Positions 1,457-64,000 of a DNA stretch of 64,000 nt are shown piece by piece. The position numbers and the translations under genes were made by a program. The stretch spans positions 317,278 through 381,277 of the forward strand of contig CAWAWS010000020.1 in the NCBI GenBank assembly GCA_963785725.1, written 5' to 3'. The notes under the pieces are model-generated. The model saw only the letters and a program-made list of their open reading frames with translations, was not told the origin of the DNA and did not search any database. Every line of letters begins with the position of its first letter. The first letter of the stretch is position 1. Origin of the DNA: an uncultured delta proteobacterium (GTDB lineage: Bacteria; Myxococcota_A; Polyangia; Palsa-1104).

Positions 1457-2172
1457 TTGTTCCAACTCGCAGCCGCCGCGCCGCGAGGGATTGCCCAGGC
1501 GTGCCGCCACTTCGGCATCTCGCGTAAGGCCTTCTACAAGTGGAAGAAGCGCCACGACGATCACGGCGACTCTGGGCTATGCGACCGCTCGCGCACCCCA
1601 TTGCGCTCTCCCAACGCCACGCCGCCGGAAGTCGTGAGCAAGATTCTCTACCCGCGGCAGAACTACCACTTCGGGCCGCGCAGGATTGCCGACTACCTGG
1701 CTCGCTTTCACAGCATCCCATTGCCGGCTCGTCGGTGCATCGCATCCTCCGCAAGCACGGCGTGAACCGGCTGCCGGCCAATCAGAAGCACCAGCAACAC
1801 GCCAAGCGCTGGCTGCGCTTCGAAAAGGCCCAGCCCGGTCATCGGCTTCAGCTGGACGTGAAGTTTCTCGAGCGCATCCCTGGTAAGCGCAAGCGGCTCT
1901 ACCAGTTCACCGCTATCGACGACTGCACGCGCATTCGCATCTTGAAGATTTACGACGCCTGCAATCAATCCACTGCTGTCAGATTCATAGACGAGGTCAT
2001 TCGTCGTTTGCCCTTCCGGATTCTCGTCGTGCAGACGGACAACGGCGCGGAGTTCCAGTCGAAGTTTCACTGGCACTTGGACGAGCTCGACATTCGCCAC
2101 GTCTACATCAAACCGCGAACGCCACGCCTCAACGGCAAGGTCGAACGCTCACACCGCGTCGACAATCAGGAG
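1457..2172 (+). mobile_element. IS481-family transposase fragment (frameshifted, both ends missing)
   Basis: HTH 'ACRHFGISRKAFYKWKKR', then rve core 'QLDVKF', 'TAIDDCTR', 'QTDNGAEF', 'NGKVERSHR'; similarity ends abruptly at ~2172. Confidence 0.85.
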
Positions 2173-2357
2173 GAATCCGACCGACGAGACGCGTTTCGCC
2201 GACCGGATTCGAAACGCATCGCCGCCGCCGCGCCCGGCCCTGAGCCGCCGACTCCGCCGCGTGGCCTAGATCACATCGCACAGGCGCTACGAATAGGTCG
2301 TTCGTCGTACTCGTCCGTACTACGGTGCTCACACGCCCGACCCCGAGGCCGAATACG

Positions 2358-5300: not shown

Positions 5301-6119
5301 CGCATCGTGCGCCTGCCGGTCGACGACCAGATCGGCGAGCTGACGATTCGCTGGATCGGCGTCGCCGGCGCGTCAGTCGTGAGCAGCGACGTGACGCTGA
5401 CGGTGCGGCGGCCCAATCCGTCGCTCGTCATCAAGCTGCAGAAGCCGCCGACGCTGACGCCGGGCCGAACCGCGAGCCTCGCGCTGGAGGTGCGCGACGC
5501 GCGCGGCAAGCTCGTCGATGGCGAGGCGCTGGTGAGCGTGTTCGACGACGAGCTGACGCCGCGCGCGCCGGCCATGAGCGAGTGGCGCCTGCCTCCGAAC
5601 CCGGCCGCGGAGAAGTTGCCGCGCCTCGATGTGAGTAAACCGATGTGGACCGCGATCTACCTGCACAACGACCGCGTGCAGGCGAGCGTGCCGCGCGCGG
5701 CGGCGCCGCCGCCTAACGGGGTGACCACGGCGTGGATCATGCCGCGCTTCGCGTGGGAGCGGCCGGTGCTCACCTACGGCTACGGCGCCATCGCGCCAGG
5801 GAGTGCGGTGCCGAATGCACGCGTGCCCGAGCCGCATTGGAAGAGTCCCCACAAGGGCACGAGCCCCAACAAGGCCGACGACGAGCGCGCGCCGGAGCCG
5901 GCGATCGAGCCACCGATGTTTGCGAGCGGCCGGCTCGGTCCGATGCCGGCGACGCAGCTGGAGACGGTGGCGTGGCTGCCGGCAGTGGCGCTGCAGTCGG
6001 GGCGAGCCACCGTCGAGCTGCGCCTGCCGGAGCGGCCGGCGCACTGGCGCGTGCGCGTGCTCGCACTGGGACGCGACGGCACCGTCGGCAGCATCGACGA
6101 CGAGCTGATCGCGCGCTGA
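2358..6119 (+). CDS. secreted alpha-2-macroglobulin-family (MG-domain) protein lacking the thioester half
   Basis: Signal peptide MKTRPYLLALLLLA; MG motifs 'TDRPLYR', 'YRPGETAEL', 'L.PG.TASL.LEVRDARGK' and 'ETVAWLP...LRLPERPAHWRV'; no CxEQ. Confidence 0.75.
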   Translation: MKTRPYLLALLLLAPPSLASANELPSDPEALFTQGQYEAALVGFAAASLREHDDAPYMRGLVGAVRCEMLLGRHPDAFERLRRARLPADVGMRAIVELLRLQLLFELQRGGGISDGNAPPVHGDPPLARADATREADAATLHLWRDRVELARVPIAKLGDLFNVEHADLTRFPSLWDFLVERMSIYLVDRTAGGTIDLTAETVPRDFEHMRPSRDRLAALFEESGNLDGGDVDRKSAAERWRIDRVLLDENHASTDDGTAWRARAIARLSGWARTMTTPAARAEAALQAATFLRYKDQDDGKLNALALIDAALKDSPSGRVATTLRQLAAELGQRELSAWTWVTRDGKGALHVSARNVKTIYLRLYRLDPTSQLQEELGRPAANPQVPAKRIEGWMKTLPKVAEWSVPTGDRGTHASMDRNLDVRVPGVGFYLLLVSTEHDFPVGRATVLADFLQVNDIAVARVRVGETVRHYAFDAERHAPAAEMPFRLQLFPHRSLTLATQERLLTNSDGVVDWTYPVGQDDSVETMAQHGYSFGIFESTSAAHRVSYPQPAPAPPLVLLVATDRPLYRLRDKIRVHVTALVRAVDGGYDFAHDQAVDLDLREPSRGAIVASAKIVMGALGSATAELTLPADSVAGNYSLMASDPAPSSGIYKMLQLRVEDQEPGLDVQLDPPPVGAHYGDKVRIQGHVKDAAGKPAAHVPLTFTVVGERWAPPNSAPPAAGWRVSDLAKKELTHGQLESDGEGAFVIELTAASADPVVHLGVPPGSEPPDVSRLTVDVNARDAGGHRVGRRCELSVGQQPLLLSAEGAGGFFMSNERPQLRVSATRFDEQPLATTVRWTVERLGAPDGKADPIHRHPLAVELARYPALREVAHGTLATIEHEATELQLPATLPAGIYRLRLDGDGGSRGTFPLLVVDARTQTLPGVLPPLALARRDVYRPGETAELLVGGGDAAGTYQLEVWRDGRRLSSQLHRGAPLRIVRLPVDDQIGELTIRWIGVAGASVVSSDVTLTVRRPNPSLVIKLQKPPTLTPGRTASLALEVRDARGKLVDGEALVSVFDDELTPRAPAMSEWRLPPNPAAEKLPRLDVSKPMWTAIYLHNDRVQASVPRAAAPPPNGVTTAWIMPRFAWERPVLTYGYGAIAPGSAVPNARVPEPHWKSPHKGTSPNKADDERAPEPAIEPPMFASGRLGPMPATQLETVAWLPAVALQSGRATVELRLPERPAHWRVRVLALGRDGTVGSIDDELIAR

Positions 6120-6611
6120 GCGCTGCGGCGCGGTTCGGGAGGTGACCGCGACGGCGACGAAGACCGCTTGCGACCTCGGCGGTCTCGTCGCCGCCGGCTA
6201 CTTCTTGGGCTGCTTAGAGCTCGAGAATCGTTCAGCGACTCTGCTGCTCCAGCTTAAGCCACGGATAATTTCGGGGAGCTGGCGACTGAGGCGTCTTCTT
6301 CGCCGGCGACCAAGTCACCTGGTGATCCTCGACAAACGCGCAGTCGGCGACGGTCCGATCGTGACACGCCGATCGGTCAGCATTTGCGAACGGCTGCTTG
6401 CCTGCTCAAGGAACCAACGGGAGAAGGACATCACGATGGACGAGGTCTTGTCCGGGAGCGCCGCGTAGGCCCGATAGGCCTGTCGTACGTCATCGAACCT
6501 CGGATCGTGTCCTCCGGCGAGCTCCCGGGGGCGTGCGTGGGTGCGGCGCGCGCGCGCCCGCAATAAACCTTCGATCGGCGTGCCGACTCCACGATGGCCG
6601 ATTCCGACGGA

Positions 6612-6652
6612 GCGAGCTCGGTCGCGCGCACCGCGCGCCCGACCGAGCTCGC
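6612..6652. repeat. GC-rich inverted repeat (hairpin)
   Basis: GCGAGCTCGGTCG ... CGACCGAGCTCGC, 13-bp perfect stem in an intergenic region. Confidence 0.6.
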
Positions 6653-6856
6653 CAAGCCGTAAAACCGCAGCCCACCCATTCGCATCATTAGATCCGCCCG
6701 CCGTTCCGGCCGCCACGCCCCGCGCAGCCGCTGCACCATCGGCCCCGCCAGCGGCCCGAATTCCGCGCGGCGCCGATCTTTACATTCGCGTCCCTCATGC
6801 CGCGGCCCTGCCTTCCGATTGGATCGTCACCGGCACCGATTGCCGCTCGAGGATCC

Positions 6857-9800
6857 ATGCGCCGCATCGTCGTCCCCACCCTTGCCCTGCTCGCGTTCGG
6901 CTGCACGACGCCGAAGAAAACAGGGACGCAGCCCACCCCGCCCAAGGTGGTCAAGGTCGCCATCGGCGGCAGCGTCAGCGGGCTCAGCGGTCACGGGCTC
7001 GTCCTCCAGAACGGCGGCGGCGACGACCTGACCATCGCCGGCAACGGCAACTTCACGTTCGCGACCACCGTCGCCGCCGGCACGAATTACGCGGTGACCG
7101 TGTCACAGCAGCCGTCGGCGCCGACCCAGCAGTGCGTCGTCGGCGCCGGCAGCGGCACGGCGTCGCACGCCGTCACCGACATCACCGTCACGTGCACGAC
7201 GAGCGCCTACCACGTCGGCGGCTCGATCGTCGGCCTACTCGGCTCGGGCCTCGTCCTGCAAGACAACGGCGGCGACGACCTGAGCGTCGGTAGCACCGGC
7301 GCCTTCCAGTTCGCCACGCGCCGTCGCCAGCGCCAAATCCTACAGCGTCAGCATCACGCAGCAGCCGACGAACCCGCTGCAGCAGTGCAGCGTCAGCGGC
7401 GGCTCGGGCATCATCGGCGGCGGCAACGTCACCAGCGTCGTCGTCAATTGTACGGGCGACAGCTACACCATCGGCGGCACCGTCAGCGGTCTCGCCGGCT
7501 CCGGCCTCGTCCTGCAAGACAACGGCGGCGACGACGTCGCGCTCACGGCCAACGGCAGCTTCGCCTTCGCGACGCCGCTCGCCAACGGCAAGCCGTTCGC
7601 CGTCACCGTCAAGACGCAGCCGTCGACGCCGCAGCAGACCTGCACCGTCACGCAAGGCGCCGGCACCGTCGACTCGGCCAACGTCAGCAACGTCGCCGTC
7701 AGCTGCGTCACCGCGCGCTACACCGTCAGCGGCAGCGTCAGCGGCCTCGCCGGCTCCGGCCTCGTCCTGCAGGACAACTTGGGCGACAACCTGCCGGTCA
7801 GCGCCGACGGCAGCTTCACCTTCGCCACGTCCGTCGCCAGCGGCAGCACCTACGGCGTCACCGTGTTGGCGCAGCCGACGTCGCCGACGCAAACGTGCAG
7901 CGTGACCCACGGCGCCGGCACCATCGCCACGAGCAACGTCAGCGACGTCGCCGTCAGCTGCACCGTCGACAGCTTCAAGGTCGGCGGCACCGTCGTCGGC
8001 GTCGCCGGCGCCGGCCTCGTGCTGCAAGACAACGGCACCGACGATCTCCCCATCAGCGGCGACGGCAAATTCACCTTCGCCATCGCGCTCGCCAGCGGCT
8101 CGACCTTCGCCGTCACGGTCAAGACGCAGCCCGCTTCGCCCGCGCAAGTGTGCGTCGTCTCCGGCGACACGGGCACGATCGGCGGCGGCGACGTCGGCAG
8201 CGTCACCGTCAACTGCACGACCAATCGCTACGTCGTCGGCGGCACCGTCAGCGGTCTCGCCGGCAGCGGCATGGCCATCGCGCTCAACGGCGGCGACTCG
8301 CTCGTCGTCACCGCCAACGGCAGCTTCGCGTTCCCCGACACCGTCGCCGACGGCGCGACCTACGGCGTCACCGTCGTCGCGCAGCCGACGTCGCCCGGCC
8401 AGACCTGCACCATCACCAACGACAGCGGCACCATCGCCACCGCCGACGTCAGCAACGTCGCCATCAGCTGCACCAACAACCCGTCGCACGTCGGCGGCAC
8501 CGTCAGCGGCCTCGTCGGCTCGGGCCTCGTCCTCGAGAACGAGCTCGGCGACGACCTCGCCATCGGCGGCAACGGCAGCTTCACCTTCGCCACCGCCGTC
8601 GCCTCCGGCCAGCCCTACTCGGTCACCGTCGCCACGCAGCCGTCGTCGCCGACGCAGACCTGCGTCGTCGGCAACGCCGCCGGCAACGTCACGTCGGGCT
8701 ACGACATCTCCAACGTCACCGTCACCTGCTCGACGAACCGCTACGCCATCGCCGGCGCCATCACCGGCCTTTCCGGCACCGTCGTCCTCACCGACAACGG
8801 CGGCGACACGCTGATCCTGAGCGGCGCCACCAGCTTCGTGTTCCCGACCAGCATCGCGAGCGGCGGCGCCTACGCCGTCGCCGTCGCCACGCAGCCGTCG
8901 ACGCCCGATCAGACCTGCACCGTCAGCAACGACGCCTCGGGCATCGTCGGCGCGAGCGACGTCAACGACATCGTCGTCAGCTGCGTCACCAACAGCTATC
9001 CCATCAAGGTCACCGTCAACGGCCAGGACGGCCCCGGCCTCGTCCTCGAGAACAACGGCGGCGACGACCTCGCCATCGACGCCAGCGGCAGCTACGCCTT
9101 CGCCACGTCGGTCGCGAGCGGCGGCGCTTACGCCGTCACCATCATCGCGCAGCCGGCCGCGCCCTGCACGCTCTCGGCGAACGCCAGCGGCACCGTCGGC
9201 AGCGGCCCCGTCTCGGTCACCGTCAACTGCTCGACGAGCTCGTGGGTCGTCGGCGGCACCGTCAGCGGCCTCGCCGGCGCCGGCCTCGTCCTGCAAGACA
9301 ACGGCGGCGACAATCTCGCCGTCAACGCCAACGGCAGCTTCGCCTTCGCCACCACCGTCGACGACGGCAGCGGCTACAACGTCACCGTCAAGACGCAGCC
9401 GACGAACGCCTGGCAGACCTGCACCGTCACGTCCGGCAGCGGCACCGTCAGCGGCGGCGACGTCACCAGCGTCAGCGTCACCTGCGTCTCGACTCCGTAC
9501 AACGTCGCCGTCACCGTCAGCGGTCTGGCCGGCTCGGGCCTCGTCCTCGAAGACAACAGCGGCGACGACCTCGCCGTCAGCGCCGACGGCACCTACAGCT
9601 TCGCCACGCCCGTCGCCAGCGGCAGCGCCTACTCGGTCACCGTGCTCGACCAGCCGACGTCGCCCTGGCAGACCTGCGTCGTCCAGTCGGGCAGCGGCCT
9701 CATCGCCAACGGCGCCGTCACCATCAACGTCACCTGCACCGTCGACATGCACACCGTCGGCGGCACGGTCGTCGCGCTCGAGAACAGCGGCCTCGTCCTG

Positions 9801-10566
9801 CAGGACAACAGCGGCAACGACCTGTCAATCGCCGCCAACGGCAGCTTCGTCTTCACCAGCGCCTTGCCGAGCGGCAGCGCCTACTTCGTCACCATCGCCA
9901 CGCAGCCCGTCGGCCAGTACTGCCTCGTGCGCTTCGGCAGCGGCACCATCACCGGCAGCGACGTCGGCAGCGTCATCGTCACCTGCGCGCACCTGACCAA
10001 CGGCAGCTTCGAGACCGGCGACTACAGCGCCTGGACGCTCTCGGTCGTCGACGCCTGCCCCGGCTGCTACGACTCCGGCACGTGGGGCGTGCTCGCGAGC
10101 GGCACCACGCTCAACTACAACGACTACGTCTACGATTACTTCACGCAGGCGCCGATCCAGGAGGAGTCTGTGAACATGCCCGAGTCGTTCACCGCCAGCG
10201 ACGGCAACTTCGTCGCCGTCGGGCTCGAGAACGGCCCCGCCGATCACCGCATCTACCAGGACGTCATCGTGCCTTTGACGGCGACGAACCTGAGCTGGGA
10301 GATGATGTACAACAACTCATTCGCAGGGCGCGTTCGATCCCGACAATCAGTACATCGCGCTCAACCTGCGCGACGTCGACACCGACGCCATCATCGCCAC
10401 GCTCTACAAGACCACCGAAGGATTGTGCCCCGAGGTCCTCGGCTCGATGACCACCTTCAGCGAGGACATCACGGCCTATCGCGGCCGCCTCGTGCGCATC
10501 GACTTCGAAATCCAGGCGCAGTTCGGCTTCTTGGACACCGGCGTCGATAACTTCCGCTTCGAGTAG
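6857..10566 (+). CDS. large surface lipoprotein with 12 tandem ~85-aa beta-rich repeats and a C-terminal CBM-like domain (two apparent frameshifts, ~7320 and ~10330)
   Basis: Lipobox LAFGC; repeat consensus 'GGTVSGLAGSGLVLQDNGGDDL...GSFxFAT...YxVTVxxQP...QTCxV...VxVxC'; C-terminal 'NGSFETGDYSAW...DNFRFE*'. Confidence 0.8.
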
Positions 10567-52973: not shown

Positions 52974-53093
52974 CAAGTTAGCCCTCGCTCGCATTGCTAG
53001 TTCGTCAACGGATTTGCTACAATGAACGGCGCTGATAACCGTCCGCATGGCGGATGTAATGAGGTACCGACGGTGCCGGACACGCGGAGAGAC

Positions 53094-55124
53094 ATGAGAA
53101 CGCCCATCACGCTCAAGATCAAGTTCAAGAGCTCCAACCTCGAACAGTTCATCGAGCGCTACTCCGTGGACGTCTCGAGGGGTGGCATCTTCATTCGTAC
53201 CAAAGAGCCGCTGCCCGTCGGTACGCAGCTTCGTTTCGAGTTCCAGCTCCAGGACGCGTCGTCGCTGATCGCCGGCGATGGCACCGTCGTCTGGATCCGC
53301 GAGCACGATCCGGCGCGGCAAGGCGTGGCGCCCGGCATGGGCGTCAAGTTCGATCGCCTCGCTGCGGAATCGCAGAAGGTGCTCGACAAGATCCTCGCCG
53401 AGAAGCAGAAGCGTGGCGACGCGCAGCTGGAATCTCGCTTCGATGCCGGCGTGCGCGCTTCCGCTTCGGCGTCGGGCACGTTGTCGACGGTGACGCCGCG
53501 TCCGCGCGACGACTTCTCGGGCGGCGATTCGAAGGTGAACACGCCGCTGCCGGGCGCGGTGCCGGGCCTCGAGTCGCCCGGTGACGAGTTCGGCAACGAG
53601 TCGACGCGCGTCATGCAGAACGAGCTGGTGCGCTCGCTCGCCGATCGCACGCGCGGTCACGACGAGGCGCACAACGCGTTCTCCGATCCCGAGCCGACGC
53701 GCAAGGCCTCCGTCGAGGAGCTGAAGCTGGCGGTGCAAGGATCGGCGGTCGAGAAGTCGGGCGACTCGATCGACGTCAAGCAGGAGGCCAAGGTCGAGAT
53801 CGCGCCTGAGGCGTCGAAGCCGGAGCCGGTCGTCGAGCTGAAGGCGGACGCCAAGAAGCCGGAAGCGATCAAAGAGGAGCCGAAGCCGGCGGTCATCGAG
53901 GCCAAGAAGGACGAGCCCAAGCCGGCCGTCGTCGAGGCCAAGAAGGACGAGCCGAAGCTGGCGCTCGTCGAATCCAAGCCCGAAGCCAAGAAAGAAGAGC
54001 CGAAGGCGGTCGATCCCAAGACCAAGAAGGCGGAGCCCAAGGTCGAGCCCAAGAAAGAGGAGGCGAAGCCGGCGGTCGCGGCTGCGGCGCCGCCGCCGAA
54101 GAGCTCGTCGGTTTGGCTGGTGTATACGGCCGTCGTGCTCGTGGCCGTCGCGGGCGCGTATACGTTGGTGCGCTCGCACAATAATAGTGAAGAGCAGCCG
54201 ACCACTCCGCCGCCGGTCGCGCAGCCGGCGCCGACGCCACCGCCGGCCGCGCAGCCGACGCCGACGCCGCCGCCGGCGGCGCAGCCGACGCCGACGGAAG
54301 CGGCGAATCCGCCGCAAAAAGAGCCGGCGGCGACGCCGGACAAGGAGCCTGCCGCGGCTGCGGCCGGATTGTCGGTGCCGGTGACGTCGGATCCGCCGGG
54401 CGCGATGATCACCGTCGACGGCAAGCCGCTGCCGGAGCCGACGCCGACGACGCTCGGTGGGCTCGACGTGAAGAAGATCTACGACGTACGCGTGGCCTTG
54501 AAGGGCTTTCACGAGTGGAAGGTGAAGCTCAAGCCGAAGACGGGCGACAAGCTGGACGCGGCGCTGGTGCCGAACGAAAAGATCGTGGAGGTGGCGACGA
54601 CGCCGGCGGGCGCCGAGGTCGTGCTCGACGGCAAGCGCGTCGGCAAGACGCCGTTTACGATTCACAAGCTCGATCTGACCAAGGCGCACGCGCTCGAGCT
54701 CAAGCGAACGGGGTTCGTGTCGCAGACGCGCTCGATCAGCGCGACGGATACGTTCGAGTCCAAGGGCGATAAGGACGTGTTGGCGGTGGCGATGACGCTG
54801 GAAGCGGCGCCGAACGTGCCGGCGCCGCCGAAGCCGCATCCGGTGGCGGTGAAGAAGCCGGCGCCCAAGAAGCCGAGCGACACGACGTCGCCGCCGTCGG
54901 ACACGGCGCCGGCGACGGCCGAGAAGCCGACCGAAGCGGCGACGCCGAGCGAGAAGCCGGCGGCGCCGACCGACAAGGCGCCGACCGACGACAAGGCGGC
55001 CGCGGACAAGCCGGCGGCGCCGACCGACAAGGCGCCGGCGAGCGACAAGCCGGCGGAGAAGCCGAAGTCGAAGCCCGAAGGCGACACCAGCGCGGCGCCG
55101 GCAGCGGACGCGCCGCAGCAGTAG
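53094..55124 (+). CDS. TIGR02266/PilZ-like domain membrane protein with PEGA-like domains and Lys/Glu/Pro-rich linkers
   Basis: 'DVSRGGIFIRT..PLPVGT', 'GMGVKF', single TM, 'SDPPGAMITVDG', 'TTPAGAEVVLDG..VGKTP'. Confidence 0.85.
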   Translation: MRTPITLKIKFKSSNLEQFIERYSVDVSRGGIFIRTKEPLPVGTQLRFEFQLQDASSLIAGDGTVVWIREHDPARQGVAPGMGVKFDRLAAESQKVLDKILAEKQKRGDAQLESRFDAGVRASASASGTLSTVTPRPRDDFSGGDSKVNTPLPGAVPGLESPGDEFGNESTRVMQNELVRSLADRTRGHDEAHNAFSDPEPTRKASVEELKLAVQGSAVEKSGDSIDVKQEAKVEIAPEASKPEPVVELKADAKKPEAIKEEPKPAVIEAKKDEPKPAVVEAKKDEPKLALVESKPEAKKEEPKAVDPKTKKAEPKVEPKKEEAKPAVAAAAPPPKSSSVWLVYTAVVLVAVAGAYTLVRSHNNSEEQPTTPPPVAQPAPTPPPAAQPTPTPPPAAQPTPTEAANPPQKEPAATPDKEPAAAAAGLSVPVTSDPPGAMITVDGKPLPEPTPTTLGGLDVKKIYDVRVALKGFHEWKVKLKPKTGDKLDAALVPNEKIVEVATTPAGAEVVLDGKRVGKTPFTIHKLDLTKAHALELKRTGFVSQTRSISATDTFESKGDKDVLAVAMTLEAAPNVPAPPKPHPVAVKKPAPKKPSDTTSPPSDTAPATAEKPTEAATPSEKPAAPTDKAPTDDKAAADKPAAPTDKAPASDKPAEKPKSKPEGDTSAAPAADAPQQ

Positions 55125-56621: not shown

Positions 56622-56694
56622 TCCGACGTAGCTCAGTTGGTAGAGCAGGTGACTGTTAATCACCGGGCCACAGGTTCGAGTCCTGTCGTCGGAG
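56622..56694 (+). tRNA. tRNA-Asn(GTT), CCA not encoded
   Basis: Acceptor TCCGACG/CGTCGGA, D arm GCTC..GAGC, anticodon arm GGTGA-CTGTTAA-TCACC, T arm ACAGG-TTCGAGT-CCTGT. Confidence 0.97.
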
Positions 56695-58050
56695 CTTCGT
56701 ATCACCTCGTAGTTCTTCGTGATTCTCAAACACTGTACCAAGGACTGTACCAAGCCCCGCGGGCACGATGGGCCGCACGCAGAGCTTGGACAGCTCGTCG
56801 CATTTCAAAGCCCACAGAGGCGAGTTGTAGAGATCGATGATCTCGCCCTTCTGGCCGTGCGTGATCCCTTGCAGGACGTCACGGCGCGCGCCGTCGTTCA
56901 GCGCCAGCGTGATCATCGTGCGCCGTGTGTCGTGGACGCGGCGCGGACGCAGCTCCAGGCGCACCAGGTCGTCGCGCAAGCGGCTGTAGGCTTGGCTCGG
57001 CGTTCGGAAGGATCCGTGGTCCTTCGTCTCGCGCTTGCTCTTCTGAAGTCCTTGGCAGACCGCCGCCCGCGAGACGCCGAGGCGACGCGCCAGCTCCGCT
57101 TGGGTCGTGTGGGGCGAACCCGTGAGCAAGGCAGCGTAGTCCGGCCGGCCGTCGAGCGTGCGCTGGCCGATCTCGCGCGCAGGCACGATCAGATCTTCAG
57201 GCGTCGGCTCGCGACCCATCAAGGTCTGCCATCCGTCCTCGCGCCAGCTCTCCAGAATGCGCGCCAGCAACGGATGCACCGGGACTTCGCGCGGAACGTT
57301 TGTTTTGACCGCCTTCACGCGCTGAAGCCGAACGCTGTAGCTCTCCCCGACGCGCAGACGGCCAAGTGGACGCGCCGACGTGTCGTAATGCTTCCAGCGT
57401 AGGGCGGCGCACTCGCCCCACCGCACGCCTGTCATGAAGAGGATCGAATAGATGACGCGGCGATCTTCGGGGATCCGTTCATCCGAGATCAGCGCCTCCA
57501 CTTCTTCGCGCGCAAAGACTGCCGTCGGCCGCCAATGGGGATCCTTGTCCATCTTTTCCGGCAACTCGCCGCGCTGGAGCAGGCACGGATTAGAATCGAT
57601 TAGCTCGTCGACCTGTGCGTCGTGGAAGAACGTGTGCAGCATGGCGTAGACGTTTCGCAACGTGCGCGGCGCCATCGGCTCCTTGCCCTCGCGCAGCTTC
57701 CGCACCAGATCGCGCACGTGACGCGGGCGTACATCATCAAGCTTCAGCTCGCCGATGAGAGGTCGCACGTGCATGCGAAAGCGCGCTTTGTCGTCGATAG
57801 CGCTGGTAAGCCCGCGCGCTTCACGAATACCGAGCCAGCGATCGGCGTAACGGCCCACCGTCAGCGGGCCTTGCTCGCCTGTCTCGCCGAGATCGATCAG
57901 CGCGCACACCTTCGCCTCGGTCTTCTTTAGCAGGACTTCGGCATCCTTCTCCTGCCCAACGTCGAGACCGGTAGGCTTGTTCTTCCAGTCGCCGGCGACG
58001 TTCTTGTACTTCATCCATAGCTTGTGACCCCGTGCGAAGATCGAGCCCAT
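56656..58050 (-). CDS. int: tyrosine recombinase/integrase with internal HTH insertion
   Basis: Catalytic R (GVRWGE), K (VKTN), HxxR (VHDTRR), H (ITHG), Y (IIDLYN); SAM-like 'LKLDDVRPRHV'. Confidence 0.92.
   Translation of the reverse strand: MGSIFARGHKLWMKYKNVAGDWKNKPTGLDVGQEKDAEVLLKKTEAKVCALIDLGETGEQGPLTVGRYADRWLGIREARGLTSAIDDKARFRMHVRPLIGELKLDDVRPRHVRDLVRKLREGKEPMAPRTLRNVYAMLHTFFHDAQVDELIDSNPCLLQRGELPEKMDKDPHWRPTAVFAREEVEALISDERIPEDRRVIYSILFMTGVRWGECAALRWKHYDTSARPLGRLRVGESYSVRLQRVKAVKTNVPREVPVHPLLARILESWREDGWQTLMGREPTPEDLIVPAREIGQRTLDGRPDYAALLTGSPHTTQAELARRLGVSRAAVCQGLQKSKRETKDHGSFRTPSQAYSRLRDDLVRLELRPRRVHDTRRTMITLALNDGARRDVLQGITHGQKGEIIDLYNSPLWALKCDELSKLCVRPIVPAGLGTVLGTVFENHEELRGDTKLRRQDSNLWPGD
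56732..56754. repeat. 11-bp direct repeat, candidate integrase arm-type sites
   Basis: ACTGTACCAAG at 56732-56742 and 56744-56754, ~40 nt from the tRNA end. Confidence 0.65.
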
Positions 58051-58265
58051 TAGCGCTTCTCCTTCCGTTCTGGCTCGTAGTCGGCCAAGAACTTTTCGAC
58101 GATCATGCGGGCCAGCTTGCTGCGCCCGACTCTGGTTTCCTTGGCCATCGCCTCGAACTTGCGGGCTTCGGCACCGGCCAACCGGAAATTGATCTGCGTC
58201 GCTCGCTGCGTTTCGGGCACGGGTAAGCCCAGCTCGCTGAGCTTGCTCTCTCCAGACCGCGGCAT
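58050..58265 (-). CDS. ribbon-helix-helix (CopG-like) DNA-binding protein
   Basis: 'TQINFRL...ARKFEAMAKETRVGRSKLARMIVEKFL'; stop overlaps the int start. Confidence 0.7.
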   Translation of the reverse strand: MPRSGESKLSELGLPVPETQRATQINFRLAGAEARKFEAMAKETRVGRSKLARMIVEKFLADYEPERKEKR

Positions 58266-58330
58266 GACCCGTACCGTATTACGGTTCGCATCCCACGATC
58301 AAGGGCCCCGCCTGCTTGTGCTACTCCGCG

Positions 58331-58657
58331 TCACATCGCAGCCAGTGCGGCGGCTCTCTCATCGAGATCGACGACCTTGGTCGACGTCAGTCCATCCATG
58401 AATGTGTCCAGTTCCGATTGTCGAACGCGGTGGTGACGTCCCGCACGATGGCCCTTCAATTCACCCTTCCGAATCCACCTCCGGATGGTCGCTTCATGAA
58501 CTCCGGCCGACCTGGCGGCCTGCGATACCGTCAGGTATCCGCCCTCATCAGCTCGCGTAGGAGCAACTAGCGCCGTCACGCTCTCTCTCAATGCCGATCG
58601 TAACTCGTCGCGGACGACCTCTTTAACCACCTCGCGAATTTGCGTCTCGATACTCAT
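58331..58657 (-). CDS. excisionase-like HTH protein
   Basis: 'YLTVSQAARSAGVHEATIRRWIRKGEL...HRVRQSELDTFM'; GGAGG RBS. Confidence 0.85.
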   Translation of the reverse strand: MSIETQIREVVKEVVRDELRSALRESVTALVAPTRADEGGYLTVSQAARSAGVHEATIRRWIRKGELKGHRAGRHHRVRQSELDTFMDGLTSTKVVDLDERAAALAAM

Positions 58658-58735
58658 CGCTGGACCTCCAAGCCGTAGTTGTGGCTAATCGTGTCAGACA
58701 TTCTCGTGGAGCGGGCATCGCATTACGAGGTGCGA

Positions 58736-59110
58736 CTATTCGGTTCTGCACGCTCGGCTCGAACAAGGACCGAGAGCGCGCGGTCTCAGTTTTCGCGCCG
58801 GCTCACCAGGACCCTCTAAGGTCGCGGACACCGGCCTAACGCGCGCGAACGATGGCAGGATTGGATAGTCGATATCGGGATCGAATCGACCCCGTTCGCG
58901 ACGTGTCAGATAGAGCAGGTAGTCGAGCCGGCAATAGAACCGAGGATCCGATGCCGGCAGGACGCCGCGCTCGTAGCGTGGCGTCGATGCCAGCTGCGGG
59001 TTGCGCGCCTCGATGATCGAATTCAGGAACCACTCGTGCTGCAAGAGCCGGCGTTGATGCCGCTCGGCTTGCTTGGTGACCAGATCGGGACCCGTACGCG
59101 AAAGCCTCAC
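58736..59110 (-). CDS. hypothetical protein
   Basis: GTG start within a GTGA overlap; 124 aa; no recognisable motif. Confidence 0.5.
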   Translation of the reverse strand: MRLSRTGPDLVTKQAERHQRRLLQHEWFLNSIIEARNPQLASTPRYERGVLPASDPRFYCRLDYLLYLTRRERGRFDPDIDYPILPSFARVRPVSATLEGPGEPARKLRPRALGPCSSRACRTE

Positions 59111-59366
59111 GCTTGCACCCGCGCGCGTCCACAAGCAGGTTCTTGGCGGCGATCAACTGCTGGGCATAGGCGTCAGTGTGGCCACGCCCCTGCTGATCGT
59201 GGAAGCCTCCGCGCGTGACCTCGGCCTTGATCCGTGCGCGAAATGCCGCGCGAACGTCGGCAGCGCCGGCTGTCAGCGCTACGCCGAGCAGCGCCGCCGC
59301 ATCGCGCGCTGCAGTGTCAACGTCATCGCCGTGTGACGCATCTGCCGTTGGCGACTGCCTCTTCAC
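59107..59366 (-). CDS. degenerate J-domain-like protein (probable frameshift near 3' end)
   Basis: 'ALLGVALTAGAADVRAAFRARIK...FHDQQG...AQQLIAAKNLL'. Confidence 0.5.
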
Positions 59367-59499
59367 CGAGTGTCGTGCAGCCAGTCCACGAGCGCGCTAA
59401 TGCCCGATTCGCGAGCGAAGATAGCAGCGCTCGAAGCGGGTCTCGGAGGTCACGAGCGTCGGAACGGAACGGATTCGGAATCGTCGTCTGAGATTGCAT
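59323..59499 (-). CDS. small hypothetical protein
   Basis: GGGAGG RBS, then MQSQTTIPNPFRSDARDLRDPL...; 3' end uncertain. Confidence 0.45.
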   Translation of the reverse strand: MQSQTTIPNPFRSDARDLRDPLRALLSSLANRALARSWTGCTTLGEEAVANGRCVTRR

Positions 59500-59510
59500 G
59501 GTTCCTCCCT

Positions 59511-60015
59511 TCAGGCCCACAGCTCGAACGCACCGACGGTGGTACGCGCACGTTGGCCATCACGAATCCAATGCTCGCGCAGCTGCGCCGACGTGAATCG
59601 ATATCCTTCACGATGAGCGGCGACGAGCTTGTCTTGCACGCGCGGCTCGAAAAACGAGGTAGCGCCACCGGTCGGATCGGCCGACTGCGGCGCCCCGAGC
59701 ACACGCACAGCCAACTCGCGGTTGACGACCGTCGACGGGCGCGCCGACGAGAACGGCCGGCCGTGGCAGCAAGGGCCGCAAGTCGGCGTGCAAACCAGCT
59801 GGCGATCGACGTCCCCTGTTTGCGCGCGCGGTTGCGGACGCACCAGGCGATGGCCGTTCTTTCGACCTCGCTGTAGCCGTCGGCTTCGCTCGTGATGACG
59901 CGCGCCAATGCGTCGACCTTGTCGCGGGCGCCGTCCTCGTCGGGCGAGCGCTTGCGGCCGACGAGCCACGAGATCCGACGGCCCCGAGCCCAATCCACGC
60001 CAAGGCGCGGCTCAC
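59511..60015 (-). CDS. SleB/Hydrolase_2-like cell wall hydrolase with N-terminal membrane anchor (apparent frameshifts)
   Basis: 'LARVITSEA...AIAWCVRNR' and 'DPTGGATSFF' in adjacent frames; N-terminus 'SRALAWIGLGAVG'. Confidence 0.7.
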
Positions 60016-60239
60016 GACTCGTCCTCTTGGAGCGCTTGTCGGTGTGCTTCGATCGCGGCGCTCACGTCGTAGATATCGAGCGTCCGTTCGTGGCTCGCGC
60101 TCATCGAGAACGCATCCAGCGCGCGTCCGTTCTCGTCGAGGATGTTCACTATCGTCCCACCGTGCCAGACGAAGAGCAGCCCTCGCTCTTCATCGGTGAC
60201 GACCAGACGTGCGCCATCCAACTCAGAAAAGAGGCTCAC
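60012..60239 (-). CDS. hypothetical protein (acidic, 75 aa)
   Basis: GTGA overlaps on both sides. Confidence 0.65.
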   Translation of the reverse strand: MSLFSELDGARLVVTDEERGLLFVWHGGTIVNILDENGRALDAFSMSASHERTLDIYDVSAAIEAHRQALQEDES

Positions 60240-60808
60240 GAGCGCGCCCGCCCGTTGTTGTCGTCGTTCCTATCGCGCTTGTCGGCGGCGGCTTCGAGCT
60301 GGCGGTTCAGCTCGGCACGACTACGCAGCCCATCGCGGCTGGGCGCGACGGCATCCAGCGCCTTGACCGCCAGCCACAGACCTCCGCCGACGAGCAGAAG
60401 CTTTAGCGCGTCATTGGCCTTTTCGGCCGCGATCGACGAGCGATTGGTCAGCCAGTGCCAGTCTTGGCTGAATTCGCCGGCCAGCTCACGAAGGAAGCCA
60501 GCCGCAGGCTCCGCGCGCTGCACCTCGCCCGGAAACAGATTGGTGCGCGCTCGGTTTTGCGGAGCGCCGGGCAGGCTCTCCTCGACACGGTCCGCCAACA
60601 GCTCGGTGTCGCGGGCGACGCGCGCACGCTCCAAGTCGTTGGTCGCCCGCATCCACTCCAGCTCCAGACGCTGCAGCCCTTTACCGATCGCGACTGTCGG
60701 TTCGTCGCCAACGTATCTCAGCGGATTCCACTGCGCTGGCTTCGTGGAATCGACTGCACGCTGGACGTACGCAGCGGCGGCATCGTATCGCTCATGAATC
60801 GTCGCCAT
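60236..60808 (-). CDS. hypothetical membrane protein
   Basis: 190 aa, helical, TM 'LLLVGGGLWLAV' near the C-terminus. Confidence 0.7.
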   Translation of the reverse strand: MATIHERYDAAAAYVQRAVDSTKPAQWNPLRYVGDEPTVAIGKGLQRLELEWMRATNDLERARVARDTELLADRVEESLPGAPQNRARTNLFPGEVQRAEPAAGFLRELAGEFSQDWHWLTNRSSIAAEKANDALKLLLVGGGLWLAVKALDAVAPSRDGLRSRAELNRQLEAAADKRDRNDDNNGRARS

Positions 60809-60828
60809 GGCCAACCCTCGTGGGAATC

Positions 60829-60867
60829 GGCGGGCGCCCCGCGCCAACTACACAGGAGGCGCCCGCC
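60829..60867 (-). terminator. hairpin between element genes
   Basis: GGCGGGCGCC...GGCGCCCGCC 10-bp stem. Confidence 0.45.
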
Positions 60868-60889
60868 ACTGTTGAGCTACGGTCGTTCG

Positions 60890-61224
60890 TTAGAGAGGCT
60901 GGATGCCCTGACCTGCCGAGAACCGCGCAGTCACCGCGACGCGCAGATGCTCGGGCGCCAGCTCGACCCACGGCGCATAGCGCCACGGTAATGTCACTGT
61001 CACTTGGTCGCCGCCGTGGAGCGCGCCGTTGACCAATCCCGTCGCGATTTGGGCTCGCCGAGGGTGACGACGAGCTCCAGGTCATCGTCCACGCCGATGC
61101 ACGGGTCGACCTCGACGGCGCCGAAATAGAAGTCGACGCGGCTGTAGCCTTGGGGCACGACGAAGGCGACCGGCGCGCCGCTGGCGGAGTGCATACGCTC
61201 GCTCAGTAACGGCTCGTCGATCAT
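60890..61224 (-). CDS. hypothetical beta-rich protein (one apparent frameshift ~61045)
   Basis: MIDEPLLSERM...VDFYFGAVEV...LELVVTLG / GDQVTVTLPWRYAPWVEL...VAVTARFSAGQGIQPL*. Confidence 0.55.
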
Positions 61225-61232
61225 GTCGTCGA

Positions 61233-61868
61233 TCAGCTGCTCGTGTGCGCGGGCCGCCCGCGCACAAGCCGCGGGTTGTAGGCGTACGCCTGCACCAGCT
61301 TGTCGCACGGGTCGCGTCGGCGCCGACCGTCGACGTCTCCGTGCTCTGCGCTAGTCGTACGGTGGGCGTCGTCGGTGCCAGGCTCGCGGTCGTGGTCGCC
61401 GAGGCCGAGGTCCCCGCGCTGGCCGCCGTGCCCGCGGTAGGACCGGATGCCGCGCTGGCTGAATCCGCCAACGTCGGTGGAGTGGCGGCGACGGCCGGCG
61501 TACCGACGTTGATGATAATCTGGCTTGGCGGCACCGTGGTCGCTGCGGTCGGCGAGACTGCTACGCCACCATTGCCCGGTGTGGCCGTCGAGTCGATCGC
61601 TCCTTGACTGCCAGCATTGCTGGCCGGAAGTGCAGCGATTGTCCCCGTGGCGCTCGCCGGCGGCGAGCACGTCGGCGGCAATGCCGAAGCCGTGGACAGA
61701 GGATACGGAAGATCATCGGGTAAAGATGCTGTTGAACAGGCCGTCCCGCGCCGTCGGCTGATAGCTGCCTTGCGAGCAGTTGGCGGCCCGGGTCGGGCAA
61801 TTCGGATCCGTCGTGGTCGCCTGCCCCGGATACGGCGTCGCCGTGGGCATCACGAAATTCCAATTCAT
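61233..61868 (-). CDS. hypothetical Ala/Thr/Ser/Pro-rich protein (apparent frameshifts)
   Basis: GGAGGG RBS; MNWNFVMPTATPYPGQ..., low-complexity stalk, C-terminus 'DPCDKLVQAYAYNPRL'. Confidence 0.55.
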
Positions 61869-61921
61869 GCCGCGTCCCTCCATCGTGCGTCGCTGCCGGG
61901 GCGAACGCGCACTTCCTGAAG

Positions 61922-61955
61922 CGGGAGCCGCGGACGAGTTGTCCCGCGGCTCCCG
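61922..61955. repeat. strong inverted repeat in element intergenic region
   Basis: CGGGAGCCGCGG...CCGCGGCTCCCG 12-bp stem. Confidence 0.6.
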
Positions 61956-62021
61956 TCGAATCACTGGCGGGAACCGCCGATGTCAGACATCCACCATCGC
62001 CGAGAGCGAGGGCGGAGTCGA

Positions 62022-62623
62022 CTACAACGCGCGCGCCGGCGAGCTGGTCGTGCGGCCCGGCAGCGCGTCGATGATCGTCTGCGCCGACGCGTAGCCGAGC
62101 AGCACCATGCCGAGGTCCTTGTACAGGTCCATCCGGCGCTGAAAGCGCTGCTGGTTCTGGTTGTAAATCATCATCCACTGGTTCGCCGTCGCCTCGGGCA
62201 GACCGTCGGGCACCGTCGGCGGCTGCGGCTCGTCCGTCAGGTACGCGGCGGCGACGAGCACGCCACCGACGACCGGCGCGATCGGATGCTTCATCAGCGA
62301 CTCGATCGGCGCTCGCCCTTCTGCTCGACCGCGACCTCCGGCCCCGCCGCGGGTTGAGCGGCCGGACGCGCCTGCGGACGCGCACAACCGGCGCGACTGG
62401 AGCCGGCGTCGCCGCGGGCGCGCTCGGCTCCATCCACGCGCGCTTCTGCCAATCGTACGTCCAGCCGGCGAGCGGCCCGCCCGCCTTGCCGATCAGTCGA
62501 TGCGACGACGGCACTTACTCCTTGCCCGCGTATCCACTGACGTCCGTCCCAGCTCACGCGCCCGTCGCTGGCGTCGATGACGGACCCCGCGGGCGGGTAA
62601 TAGGAGTAGTGACGGACGGCCAT
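62022..62623 (-). CDS. one or two hypothetical proteins; C-terminal part has two hydrophobic segments (frameshifted)
   Basis: AAGGAG RBS before ATG 62623 and before GTG 62514; 'GWTYDWQKRAW', 'PVVGGVLVAAAYL', 'DLGMVLLGYA'. Confidence 0.55.
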
Positions 62624-62779
62624 AGCTCCTTCTTCCTGCCGTCTGACAAGCGACGGCCCTTGGTCGCCGTCGGCCATCCGCGTCGAGTCTCCCGGCTCGG
62701 CCACGACCTCGCCCCATGCGCGCCGCTCGTCGAGCGCGGATGTCGCGCCGTCGCTGAACCGACGGCGGAGAGTCCCGAA

Positions 62780-63712
62780 CTACTCGGCGCCGCCGTTCCG
62801 TCGCGTTCGTCGTCGCCATACGCGTTACGCTCGTCGTCGCCGTCGGAGTCGCGTTCGTCGTCGCCGTACGCGTTTCGCTCGTACTCGTCGCCATCGGAAT
62901 CGCGCTCGTCGTCGTCGGCGTTGCGCTCTCATTCATCGCCGTAGGCGTTGCGCTCGTAGTCCTCGACTTAGGCGTTGCGCCGGCTCTTGGGGCCCGACGA
63001 ACCGCCGGTCGCGTCCGCGCGATCGACGCAGGCGTAATCGGCACTGCGAACGCCGGCGACGGCAGTTCGCGCGTGCTCAGCTGCGTCTCGACCAGCACTT
63101 TGCGGATCTCCGAGTGCAGCGCGGTCATGAGGTCGCACGTCTGCTTGTGGCGGTCGTCGTCTTGTCCGCCAACTGCGCGAGCGCGGCGTTCAGCTCGGTG
63201 CGCGTGACGTACGGCTGCGGCGAGTCGCCGTCCGCCTGCCGCTTGGGGGCATCGCGCCGCCGCATCGTCCGCACTTCTGCTTGCCTACAACCCCGCGAGC
63301 AATTGGACACCGGCGACCCCATTCCGCCGAGTCCCGCGGCGAAGAACGCGTCTTTCAGCATCGGGTTCGGGAAGAGCGCCGAGCCCGAGAACGCCAGGCC
63401 GCCAGTCGCCGCGCCCGCCCACGCCGGCGAGAGCCCGGCCTTCTCGGCGACGATCAGCGTCGCGCCGCCGCCGGCCCGGCGCCGCCCATCAGCAGCAGCT
63501 TGTTCGTGCGCGGGTTGTTGAACACCCCACCACTCGCTGTCGTTGTTCCTGCCGCGTCGCGGCTTCTCTCCGGCGTCGTGTGGATCGTAATCTCCTCGCG
63601 CAGCGGCTTCTGTGAGCCTCGGTTCGGCGCCACTGCGGAAGCGTGAGGTTGGTCGCCGTGACCGCCGGGTGCTCTTTGATCCTCGGATTGCTCGCTTGCG
63701 TTTGGCCGCCAT
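62780..63712 (-). CDS. basic N-terminus / Gly-Ala TM segments / helical region / acidic ERNAYGDD-repeat protein (frameshifts and two in-frame stops)
   Basis: AAGGAG RBS; MAAKRKRAIRGSKSTRRSRR..., 'AWAGAATGGLAF', 'YVTRTELNAALAQLA', repeat tail at 62800-62985. Confidence 0.55.
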
Positions 63713-63729
63713 CGATTCTCCTTTTTGAG

Positions 63730-64000
63730 TTGTTCCGACTGCTTGCTTGTGCTTGTTTCCCCCGGTCGGCGAGTTGCGCGCCTGCGGCGGCGCTGGCCGA
63801 GGGCGACGACTGTTTTTCGGGCGCCGGCGTGGTTGACGATCTGCCGAGCACATGTTCTCCCCGCCACCGATCGCGTCGGCGACCTTGCCACCCGTCGACT
63901 GGCCGAGGTAAAATTGCAAAATCGGCTTGCCGATGACGCGGTGCACGCCCTGCAGGCCGCTCGCGATTTTGATCCAGGCTCACGTTGCGCCTCACGTCGC
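63730..64000 (-). CDS. 3' part of a hypothetical gene entering from beyond the window
   Basis: 'GLQGVHRVIGKPILQFYLGQSTGGKVADAIGGGENM'; end uncertain. Confidence 0.35.

Follow-up and report, generated by a model that had tools for sequence, protein, structure and literature searches.

A protease-marked family of tRNA-targeting, membrane-protein-rich elements in myxobacteria, possibly temperate viruses without a recognisable capsid

What is an element that integrates into a tRNA gene, encodes membrane proteins and a wall hydrolase, and has no recognisable capsid, tail or transfer gene? The question is raised by the end of the window, i.e., the whole stretch of 64,000 nt analysed here, which stops at the contig end inside such an element. 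From this contig-terminal arm a sequence-only reading had proposed either one arm of a tectivirus- or corticovirus-like provirus or a new class of integrative element in a myxobacterium.

The arm at the tRNA-Asn gene

The integration target is a tRNA-Asn(GTT) gene (56622..56695, plus strand; ARAGORN), which is an island hotspot also in genomes G002, G004 and G010. The att core is the tRNA 3' end, 24-27 bp in length (56670..56696, plus strand). The second copy, for which the sequence-only reading had suggested a search, is absent from the element's own assembly (G000): the core is single-copy even if 4 mismatches are allowed, and the window runs to the contig end. Second copies are seen in G002 at distances of 34.8 and 39 kb and in G010 at about 95.6 kb. 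When the other arm was sought in the own genome, neither a DNA match nor the N-terminus of the protease (see below) was found on any other contig. An approach to the host junction via the distal flanks of neighbours failed, because nested islands occupy the tRNA-Asn site.

All genes of the arm, from the integrase to the protease, lie on the minus strand. The tyrosine integrase (464 aa, frame open; 56656..58050) matches PHROG 1 with E 1.7e-33, has locatable catalytic R/H-x-x-R/H/Y-like motifs and is 62% identical to the G004 integrase, which also resides at tRNA-Asn. Its end codons run antisense into the tRNA; att thus lies inside int. A ribbon-helix-helix regulator follows (71 aa, 58050..58265; weak PF12651, E 0.004), with syntenic homologues at loci L018, L022 and L026, and then an excisionase-like HTH_17 protein, Xis (108 aa, 58331..58657; PF12728, E 2e-14; PHROG 66). 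About ten tightly coupled genes come next, and an RBS-like motif precedes the start of six; the layout as first described is thus confirmed. As a family tracer, the integrase alone mostly reached unrelated islands, and the hydrolase alone mostly lone chromosomal genes.

The row begins with a small gene of uncertain start (58736..59117), of which 58856-59044 is 62% identical to a syntenic gene of L062. The next gene (59100..59499, end approximate, RBS at 59499, 5' part in a different frame) encodes a protein with a C-terminal J-domain-like helix pair; its stretch 59130-59321 matches L062 and L067, and a homologue matches PF00226 with E 0.003. The membrane-anchored SleB-like cell-wall hydrolase (59511..60015) is broken by indels. 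It had been recognised as such from the start, and homologues, one with a weak PF07486 match (E 0.002), bear this out; relatives fill the slot with M23 or SLT enzymes. Two intact genes follow, one for a conserved protein of 75 aa (60012..60239; 47% identity to L062 and L067), the other for a helical protein of 190 aa with a single hydrophobic segment near the C-terminus, as judged from hydropathy and alignment A2 (60236..60808). The homologue set of the latter comprises 18 proteins, itself counted.

The next protein (60890..61868, 4 indels; 49% identity to L063 over 321 aa) combines a PxY-rich head, an Ala/Thr/Pro stalk and a C-terminal beta-sandwich, and is likely the spike. The "small beta-rich" and "Ala/Thr stalk" proteins of the sequence-only reading are its parts: the features are present, but they belong to one gene, about 327 aa long, that indels have broken up. 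The model of a homologue (pLDDT 73.5) is best matched by Ig/adhesin folds. As a capsid or penton, the beta-domain, a sandwich of 110 aa that is absent from the largest subfamily, was rejected: there was no Foldseek match at E<=0.001, and the best VIA match (Z 5.3) is to a generic Ig/adhesin-like sandwich. Its Atlas score of 0.83 to NPCBM is a lead only.

A Trp-rich domain, a Pro linker and a helical hairpin make up the following protein (62022..62623, 3-4 indels), which has 60 homologues, shows identities of 50-62% and is the candidate major structural protein. The 4-copy model of the hairpin predicts a homo-oligomer with a score of 0.65, against 0.00 for the best control; the runs agree in no fewer than 6% of contacts, with a pLDDT of 62 or more. 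This mark is attained by 20/30 solved homodimers and 1/23 monomers, a calibration that applies only roughly here. The protein has no PDB sequence match and no usable Atlas hit. Upstream of it, a protein with a basic N-terminus, three Gly/Ala hydrophobic segments and an acidic tail of RNAYG/RDSDG repeats is encoded (62780..63712, at least 3 indels; 47% identity to L074 and L158); the hydropathy profile of a homologue supports the segments. Here, too, the Gly/Ala transmembrane piece and the basic/acidic piece had been rightly seen, but as separate proteins instead of a single gene of about 340 aa. Weak PHROG 30549/30550 rows were not reproduced with intact homologues.

The 5'-open ORF at the contig end (63520..64000) had escaped identification. 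It is the C-terminal part of a transglutaminase-fold Cys protease, corresponding to residues 135-212 of a G001 protein (E 1.9e-7); its low end is approximate and overlaps the neighbouring gene, and the catalytic domain lies beyond the contig end.

Is this copy still alive? At least 12 single-base indels, away from long homopolymers, are scattered over the structural genes (59766-63476); int, the 190-aa and the 75-aa gene are free of them. Host genes upstream align unbroken to their G004 orthologues, a deleted remnant (L041) is known in G001, and some family matches elsewhere contain internal stops. All this would fit a decayed remnant whose structural genes are true pseudogenes, whatever the family does. 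The breaks, however, are mostly missing bases clustered towards the contig end, the only two stops met adjoin an indel in the repeat tail, and 47-62% identity to intact homologues is retained. Sequencing errors are the more likely cause; decay, which would concern the window copy only, appears rather doubtful.

The family in related genomes

A search for syntenic elements in related genomes had been suggested, and such elements exist: the protease marker is present in 50 of the 401 genomes from the class of the host, with at most 6 matches per genome. Alignment A2 reached 2/401 genomes of this class; in phylum-wide samples the hydrolase reached 3/401 and alignment A3 the own genome alone (1/401). 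Intact relatives start with a sigma-like regulator, a conserved protein of no recognised type and the transglutaminase-fold Cys protease, continue with the basic Gly/Ala membrane protein, the helical-hairpin protein, the stalk/beta-sandwich protein and a helical membrane-anchored protein, and end with one to three swappable peptidoglycan hydrolases, xis and the integrase. The arm missing from the window, as read from them, would hold the sigma-like gene, the conserved gene, the protease and variable cargo. The latter includes Rhs/Ntox44, an HNH toxin with SUKH immunity, TIR/STAND and metal efflux genes.

The elements are inserted beside many different tRNA genes or tmRNA, and 8 of 14 extended loci are bounded by att, which marks the relatives as tRNA-targeting elements; the window contributes the near site only. 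The closest relative, G060, is complete, with 24.1 kb between 44-bp repeats; islands measure 24-49 kb. Related proteases are found at different tRNAs with unrelated recombinases, tyrosine and serine recombinases being exchanged. Clear homology across subfamilies is confined to the protease and the preceding gene; the others match by position and architecture, and profile links between subfamilies and to phage SSIP-1 were mostly not significant. That family copies are under purifying selection is shown, at the level of sequence, by dN/dS values of 0.12-0.20 in 6 pairs of G001 copies and family medians of 0.25-0.42.

The protease was modelled with pLDDT 84. In the PDB it is matched best by transglutaminase-like enzymes (best Z 8.4, rmsd 3.3 over 118), and its alignment retains the catalytic Cys in 102/103 and the His in 97/103 sequences, the third residue being spread over two columns (Asp in 57/103 and 27/103). 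The model thus points to a papain-like fold with a Cys-His-Asp triad, as in transglutaminase-like cysteine proteases. A search of phage and plasmid records gave no match. The best viral fold match is a protein of 304 aa (E 0.002, rmsd 4.2 over 144), which, judged from accession and length, is presumably gp34, a virion protein of the membrane-containing phage SSIP-1.

A likely, sequence-based candidate for its maturation-cleavage site is R-N-A/G. The motif occurs 96 times in the structural proteins versus a shuffle mean of 10.8 (maximum 19 in 200 shuffles), i.e., about 9-fold, and at 37.7 versus 2.95 per 10,000 residues of the host, counts that are inflated by repeats and kinship. It is invariant in 12/12 hairpin proteins of one subfamily; in the window's own subfamily the hairpin, stalk and 190-aa proteins do not contain it.

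Searches for capsid, motor and transfer genes

Among 21 ORFs of the arm there is no terminase, portal, tail, relaxase or T4SS gene, just as the sequence-only reading had stated for the visible part; rows of the PHROG head-and-packaging category arise only from the HTH of Xis. Caudoviricetes HK97 capsid, terminase, portal and tail are equally absent from the relatives' scanned proteins, as are relaxase, coupling protein and T4SS from their core, 48/90 cargo ORFs and 2 others. With neither an HK97 nor a conjugation module in the relatives, the proposal of a new class of integrative element therefore holds: it is mobile, non-tailed and rich in membrane proteins.

Such an element need not be viral. 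The module might instead work at the cell surface or in vesicles, either to transfer DNA on contact or to lyse neighbours or prey, and so spread the island together with its toxin and defence genes. In line with this idea are the multiple peptidoglycan hydrolases of a copy, the toxin, immunity, TIR/STAND and metal efflux genes and the variable island size, as is the failure of the integrase and core genes to hit IMG/VR. Yet relaxase, coupling ATPase and T4SS are absent, the core is fixed while the cargo varies freely, and basic/acidic core-like proteins, a shared cleavage-like motif and a protease play no part in the transfer systems known. We regard a non-viral element as improbable.

Pfam and PHROG scans of 125 + 50 + 44 proteins yielded no double jelly-roll capsid; two core domains were folded and searched. 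A packaging ATPase of the FtsK/HerA/A32 type was not found in the elements by Pfam, PHROG or Walker-A scans. Six-frame scanning of 29 element spans for Walker A produced 11 matches in 8 spans, none in G060; one sits in a TPR cargo protein, the rest are off the coding strand or frame as read. AAA proteins of the cargo are of WHD-AAA or STAND types. One of them gives a weak Zot row (E 6.7e-6) below its AAA row (E 1.7e-30).

Because jelly-roll capsid, A32/FtsK ATPase, terminase, relaxase and T4SS all went undetected, also in the relatives' counterpart of the lost arm, the tectivirus/corticovirus-like reading is not supported. Of course, the capsid and ATPase genes of a true Varidnaviria or Singelaviria provirus could be too divergent for detection. 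Membrane proteins, spike and virion-type hydrolases would suit such a virus, and the scans are insensitive to remote jelly rolls, since they missed the putative capsid genes of locus L057 too; a capsid of novel fold may be beyond their reach. In G060, however, all ORFs between the att sites are accounted for, with no Walker A and no spare slot for 200-400 aa, and the family's sole beta-domain, of 110 aa, sits on the stalk and is not universal. A hidden provirus of these realms is thus very unlikely.

Alternatively, the element could derive from an SSIP-1-like internal-membrane virus by reduction, or be its satellite. It would have retained the genes for membrane, spike, protease and lysis, and would rely on a helper virus for capsid, packaging motor and replication. 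In architecture it is similar to the structural region of SSIP-1, the SleB-like hydrolase is 48% identical to that of a complete 87.9-kb IMG/VR virus, and most copies are devoid of a replication gene, none being recognisable in the two larger subfamilies. That virus, however, lacks the protease, and the L057 putative capsid protein was matched in 0/5 carrier genomes searched. SSIP-1 gp45/46/47 and the L057 putative capsid proteins, used as single-sequence queries of limited reach, had no match in the own genome or the fetched loci; the structural proteins of both matched there hydrolases and one primase-like hit only. Also, no satellite is known to have lost only the capsid while keeping the full membrane set. 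Dependence on such a helper is unlikely.

Membrane proteins, a protease and wall hydrolases in the absence of a recognisable capsid or motor therefore suggest a virus in a membrane-wrapped particle, likely of a kind undescribed for walled bacteria. Our main reading, with a probability of roughly 0.55, is a temperate virus whose particle, a membrane or nucleoprotein body matured by a protease, would lack an icosahedral shell. After switch-on of the sigma-like, IrrE or HTH regulators, Int and Xis would excise a circle. The DNA might be coated at the membrane by the basic membrane protein and the self-associating hairpin protein in a motor-free co-assembly. Cleavage at R-N-A/G by the protease would remove acidic pro-segments and expose an amphipathic helix behind the protease's own catalytic domain. 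Finally, attachment to a new host cell would fall to the stalk/beta-sandwich protein, and the anchored hydrolases would breach the wall of that cell. Points against this reading are the lack of IMG/VR, phage and plasmid matches, the lack of a recognisable replication gene in the two larger subfamilies, the missing sequence link to SSIP-1 and the absence of R-N-A/G from three proteins of the window's own subfamily. More tentatively, and at somewhat less than even odds, the family could be an undescribed, class-wide lineage of temperate viruses of walled Gram-negative hosts, with a hairpin nucleoprotein in a lipid envelope, matured by the R-N-A/G protease, free of capsid and motor, and invisible to current virus finders.

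In a 2026 survey of myxobacterial viruses, 98.4% of vOTUs are Caudoviricetes (bioRxiv 10.64898/2026.09.14.751636). No description of the protease-marked family was found in the mostly open-access literature covered; supplementary tables of that survey could hold members. A selected, cargo-carrying, multi-copy family in 50/401 genomes that Pfam, PHROG and IMG/VR miss would amount to a mobile lineage that is large and has stayed hidden. Particle formation, if it occurs, would add one more virion architecture and a route of maturation driven by a protease. The protease profile and the R-N-A/G motif are direct markers.

Comparison with known systems

The likeness to SSIP-1 is one of architecture only. 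In SSIP-1, too, the gene for a transglutaminase-like virion protein is preceded by a coiled-coil gene, and a membrane protein rich in Gly/Ala, small proteins with a membrane anchor and an anchored transglycosylase are encoded. By sequence there is no significant link to the core genes (protease profile E 0.23). SSIP-1 encodes two major capsid protein types (PMC6356626). The family elements have neither these nor the SSIP-1 P-loop protein and are integrated at tRNA genes.

Capsid-less enveloped DNA viruses of prokaryotes are described for wall-less hosts (PMC6356626); in Plasmaviridae (Acholeplasma phage L2) and Pleolipoviridae the genome is housed in a lipid vesicle that contains proteins but no rigid capsid. 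The family, on our main reading, would resemble them in being temperate, small in genome and without a rigid capsid. Their hosts, in contrast, are free of peptidoglycan, and the family adds wall hydrolases and a protease; Pfam gave no link to their spike or membrane proteins, and neither did PHROG for the core proteins among 44 scanned. With Tectiviridae, Corticoviridae and related double-jelly-roll phages the family shares a virion-type wall hydrolase and an abundance of small membrane proteins, whereas their capsid and packaging ATPase are undetected. The text of the census PMC5894146 contains neither "Myxo" nor "transglutaminase".

Mx8 and Mx9 are tailed phages with genomes of 46-56 kb and differ from the family in their head-tail genes. 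Their attP lies within the int coding sequence (PMC6070905), as in the window (56656-56696), and integration therefore alters the C-terminus of the integrase.

Inoviridae, Fuselloviridae and Adnaviria have coats of helical hairpins and processed precursors. The family hairpin, predicted to self-associate, is likewise small and highly conserved; it differs by having no sequence, PDB or Atlas match, and the core contains neither a Zot/pI assembly ATPase, as in Inoviridae, nor a rolling-circle Rep. Charybdis elements are different again, their hallmark being a Greek key (10.1101/2025.08.03.668216).

The integration site and the repaired structural genes

The element at window positions 56656-64000 is, in our judgement, real: a truncated representative of a widespread and so far undescribed family of virus-like elements that integrate at tRNA genes. 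It is cut by the assembly, since the window forms the final 64 kb of its contig, C20. Its integration target is a tRNA-Asn (56622-56695), into which the frame of a tyrosine integrase of 464 aa runs (56656-58050, minus strand); an RHH protein and an HTH_17 excisionase (xis) follow on the same strand. Because the int frame stops within the tRNA, the att site lies inside int, as has also been reported for myxophage Mx8 (PMC6070905). The att core, as defined from relatives, comprises the final 24-27 bases of the tRNA and is repeated at a distance of 34.8 and 39 kb in G002 and of ~95.6 kb in G010, both genomes with tRNA-Asn islands. The own genome holds a single copy at up to 4 mismatches, so that the far att expected by the sequence-only reading was not found there. 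The catalytic domain of the integrase contains an HTH insertion (57000-57160, residues ~308-340; MarR_2/HTH_24 rows).

Beyond xis, the 18 ORFs tested have no meaningful Pfam or PHROG match. A 190-aa ORF among the element's genes has 17 homologues, which gave access to syntenic loci in metagenomes and in the same-genus genome G001; the latter harbours three partial, intact-looking copies and one deleted remnant. By frameshift-aware alignment to these relatives, pieces that had been read as separate ORFs fused into whole genes. At least 12 single-base indels, mostly lost bases, are scattered over 59766-63476, and none is seen in int, the 190-aa gene and the 75-aa gene. They are likelier due to low-accuracy sequence close to the contig end than to decay. 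The core genes of the relatives are under purifying selection: dN/dS is 0.12-0.20 across 6 G001 pairs, and the medians of 8 gene families, taken from pairs that are at least 65% identical, are 0.25-0.42. The final 300-480 bases of the window encode the tail of the element's protease, a protein that is complete in G001 (E 1.9e-7). Its Trp-containing C-terminus overlaps the start of a basic membrane protein in another frame over ~50 codons (~63520-63712), and the G001 copy L074 has the same overlap (3236-3396). The host gene at 53022-55124 codes for a 700-aa protein with a TM segment, presumably with a PilZ-type (TIGR02266-like) N-terminus and PEGA-like repeats.

A protease-marked family

The protease has 156 relatives at 50% clustering. 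Its model, built on an alignment of 103 rows, is confident (pLDDT 84). In the PDB it is closest to transglutaminase-like enzymes, foremost a protein annotated as a putative protease (Z 8.4, rmsd 3.3, 118 aligned), TglA, PeiP and LapG. Of the 103 rows, 102 keep Cys79 and 97 keep His110; the Asp is divided over two columns. Among viral structures, a 304-aa protein matches best (E 0.002); we take it to be the structural protein gp34 of SSIP-1, the sole 304-aa product of that genome, and a profile test was not significant (E 0.23).

Of 401 genomes in the host class, 50 have a match to the protease profile, with at most 6 matches per genome (35/67 in family f17, 10/23 in f3, 3/14 in the host's own). 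This tally takes in the unpublished genome G686, which no other result depends on, and kin genomes that are not independent. From more than 100 matched places, 40 were retrieved, with long contigs preferred, and clustered together with 7 earlier loci; the gene caller used misses genes where GC is lower. A recurrent order emerges. Regulators (sigma-like, and HTH or IrrE) come first, then a conserved gene of unknown function, seen in 25 loci, and the protease. Next are a Gly/Ala membrane protein of basic character, the helical-hairpin protein (23 loci, and 3 more of the type found in the window) and a stalk or PxY protein. A helical protein anchored at its C-terminus, 1-3 hydrolases (M23, SLT or SleB-like) and xis follow, and the series closes with a recombinase of the tyrosine or serine type adjoining a tRNA or tmRNA. 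The protease tree has three separate subfamilies, and near relatives on it use different tRNAs and unrelated recombinases. Clear homology across subfamilies is confined to the protease and the gene before it; the other core genes correspond by position and build. In a lower-GC genome, one member (L044:10942-17456) is flanked by a Rpn-like transposase and a RepA-like gene, the integrase not being adjacent.

A tRNA 3'-end repeat of 15-44 bp, with copies 24-49 kb apart, was found in 8 of 14 extended regions. One of these is a reduced relative in the own genome (G000:C2 ~63.4-87.3 kb; L058, L059), a protease-less, 23.8-kb island at tRNA-Gly with a 27-bp repeat. It carries an HTH gene and the conserved unknown gene, and in addition a single Gly/Ala membrane protein, an integrase and a sigma-HTH fusion. 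G001 has a comparable short form at tRNA-Asp/Val (L026). The closest relative, that of G060, is a complete element of 24.1 kb; its gene set is that of the window, except that an M23 peptidase occupies the hydrolase slot and that transposases and an Rhs toxin are added. In G002, the island at tRNA-Asn (L103, G002:C4 2043101-2052538) encodes a 2484-aa protein, presumably a Tc-toxin-family component, which has a relative in the own genome (C33 386188-388878, 42% identical).

For every known group tested, membership fails or cannot be shown. No account of the family was found in the literature searched, bioRxiv supplementary tables lying outside its coverage; the searched terms do not occur in PMC5894146, nor is there an account in the covered parts of PMC6356626, 10.64898/2026.09.14.751636 and 10.1101/2025.08.03.668216.

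Shell and motor genes, and links to viruses

No gene for a capsid, portal, terminase, packaging ATPase, relaxase or T4SS was revealed by Pfam in 125 of the 170 proteins of 14 loci, nor in 50 cargo proteins from 5 elements bounded by att sites (48 of the 90 ORFs listed there and 2 others), nor by PHROG in 44 proteins. The absence of terminase, portal, relaxase and T4SS noted from the sequence alone extends to the core and cargo proteins of relatives that were scanned. One cargo AAA protein gave a weak Zot row, and one island carries an eCIS tube gene. When 29 spans were searched in six frames for Walker-A, 8 of them had a total of 11 matches, one within a TPR cargo protein; by our reading, the others are not on the coding strand or frame. 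For the beta-domain of the stalk protein, the model (pLDDT 73.5) is a sandwich of Ig/adhesin type (best Z 5.3). The capsid and FtsK/HerA-type ATPase of the proposed tectivirus/corticovirus-like provirus did not turn up in these scans. Of course, a jelly roll might hide from these libraries, which are also blind to the putative capsid genes of the IMG/VR virus L057. The stronger argument is therefore that in complete copies no gene with the size and make-up expected of a capsid gene is left unassigned; a hidden jelly roll appears very improbable.

IMG/VR scans with int and the core genes gave no match; among the element's genes only the hydrolase reaches viral contigs. One of the latter is L057 (G723), a complete virus of 87.9 kb with direct terminal repeats and no protease. 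Its region 531-10468 has two copies of the hydrolase family and encodes a Gly/Ala membrane protein as well as basic proteins. Four beta-rich genes of 177-248 aa in it, without library match, are assumed to resemble single-jelly-roll capsid proteins. SleB-like hydrolases also stand alone in chromosomes (L042:12531-13103, L046:12738-13304, L048, L050), adjoining the same host genes in two genomes, a possible case of domestication.

Proposed co-assembly and the R-N-A/G motif

Shell and motor apart, these elements have what a temperate virus with a membrane would need: core-like proteins of basic and acidic character, membrane anchors, a likely spike, wall hydrolases with anchors, a presumed maturation protease and int/xis. 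We therefore favour a particle that would form by co-assembly at a membrane, to which, as a prediction from genes, we give a probability of roughly 0.55. A replication gene is not evident outside subfamily f3, which has a Prim-Pol and a helicase by Pfam; a satellite that depends on a helper is nonetheless doubtful, and a non-viral machine for transfer or lysis is about equally so. Four copies of the hairpin protein are predicted to associate: the score is 0.65 against 0.00 for the best control, at least 6% of contacts are shared between runs, and pLDDT is 62 or more. Among solved structures, 20 of 30 homodimers but only 1 of 23 monomers reach this mark, which is roughly applicable to the hairpin.

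In adenovirus and poxvirus, maturation proteases cut at a shared motif. The proposed particle might have its counterpart in R-N-A/G, which occurs 96 times in 25,475 core-protein residues of 20 loci versus a shuffle mean of 10.8 (maximum 19 in 200 shuffles); host proteins show 2.95 per 10,000 residues. It is invariant close to the start of 12/12 hairpin proteins of one subfamily, lies directly behind the catalytic domain of the protease in ~73/103 rows and is repeated in an acidic tail (window 62830-62980). Within the window's own subfamily, the hairpin, stalk and 190-aa proteins lack it. Judged from these sequences, R-N-A/G is a candidate site at which the element's protease would cut the structural proteins. 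Other lineages apparently repeat short motifs of their own, G-M/L-G 8 times in SSIP-1 (L178, gp34-gp53) and an A-Q-G-like one in structural proteins of subfamily f3 (L159, L167, L177); these are possibly alternative protease sites.
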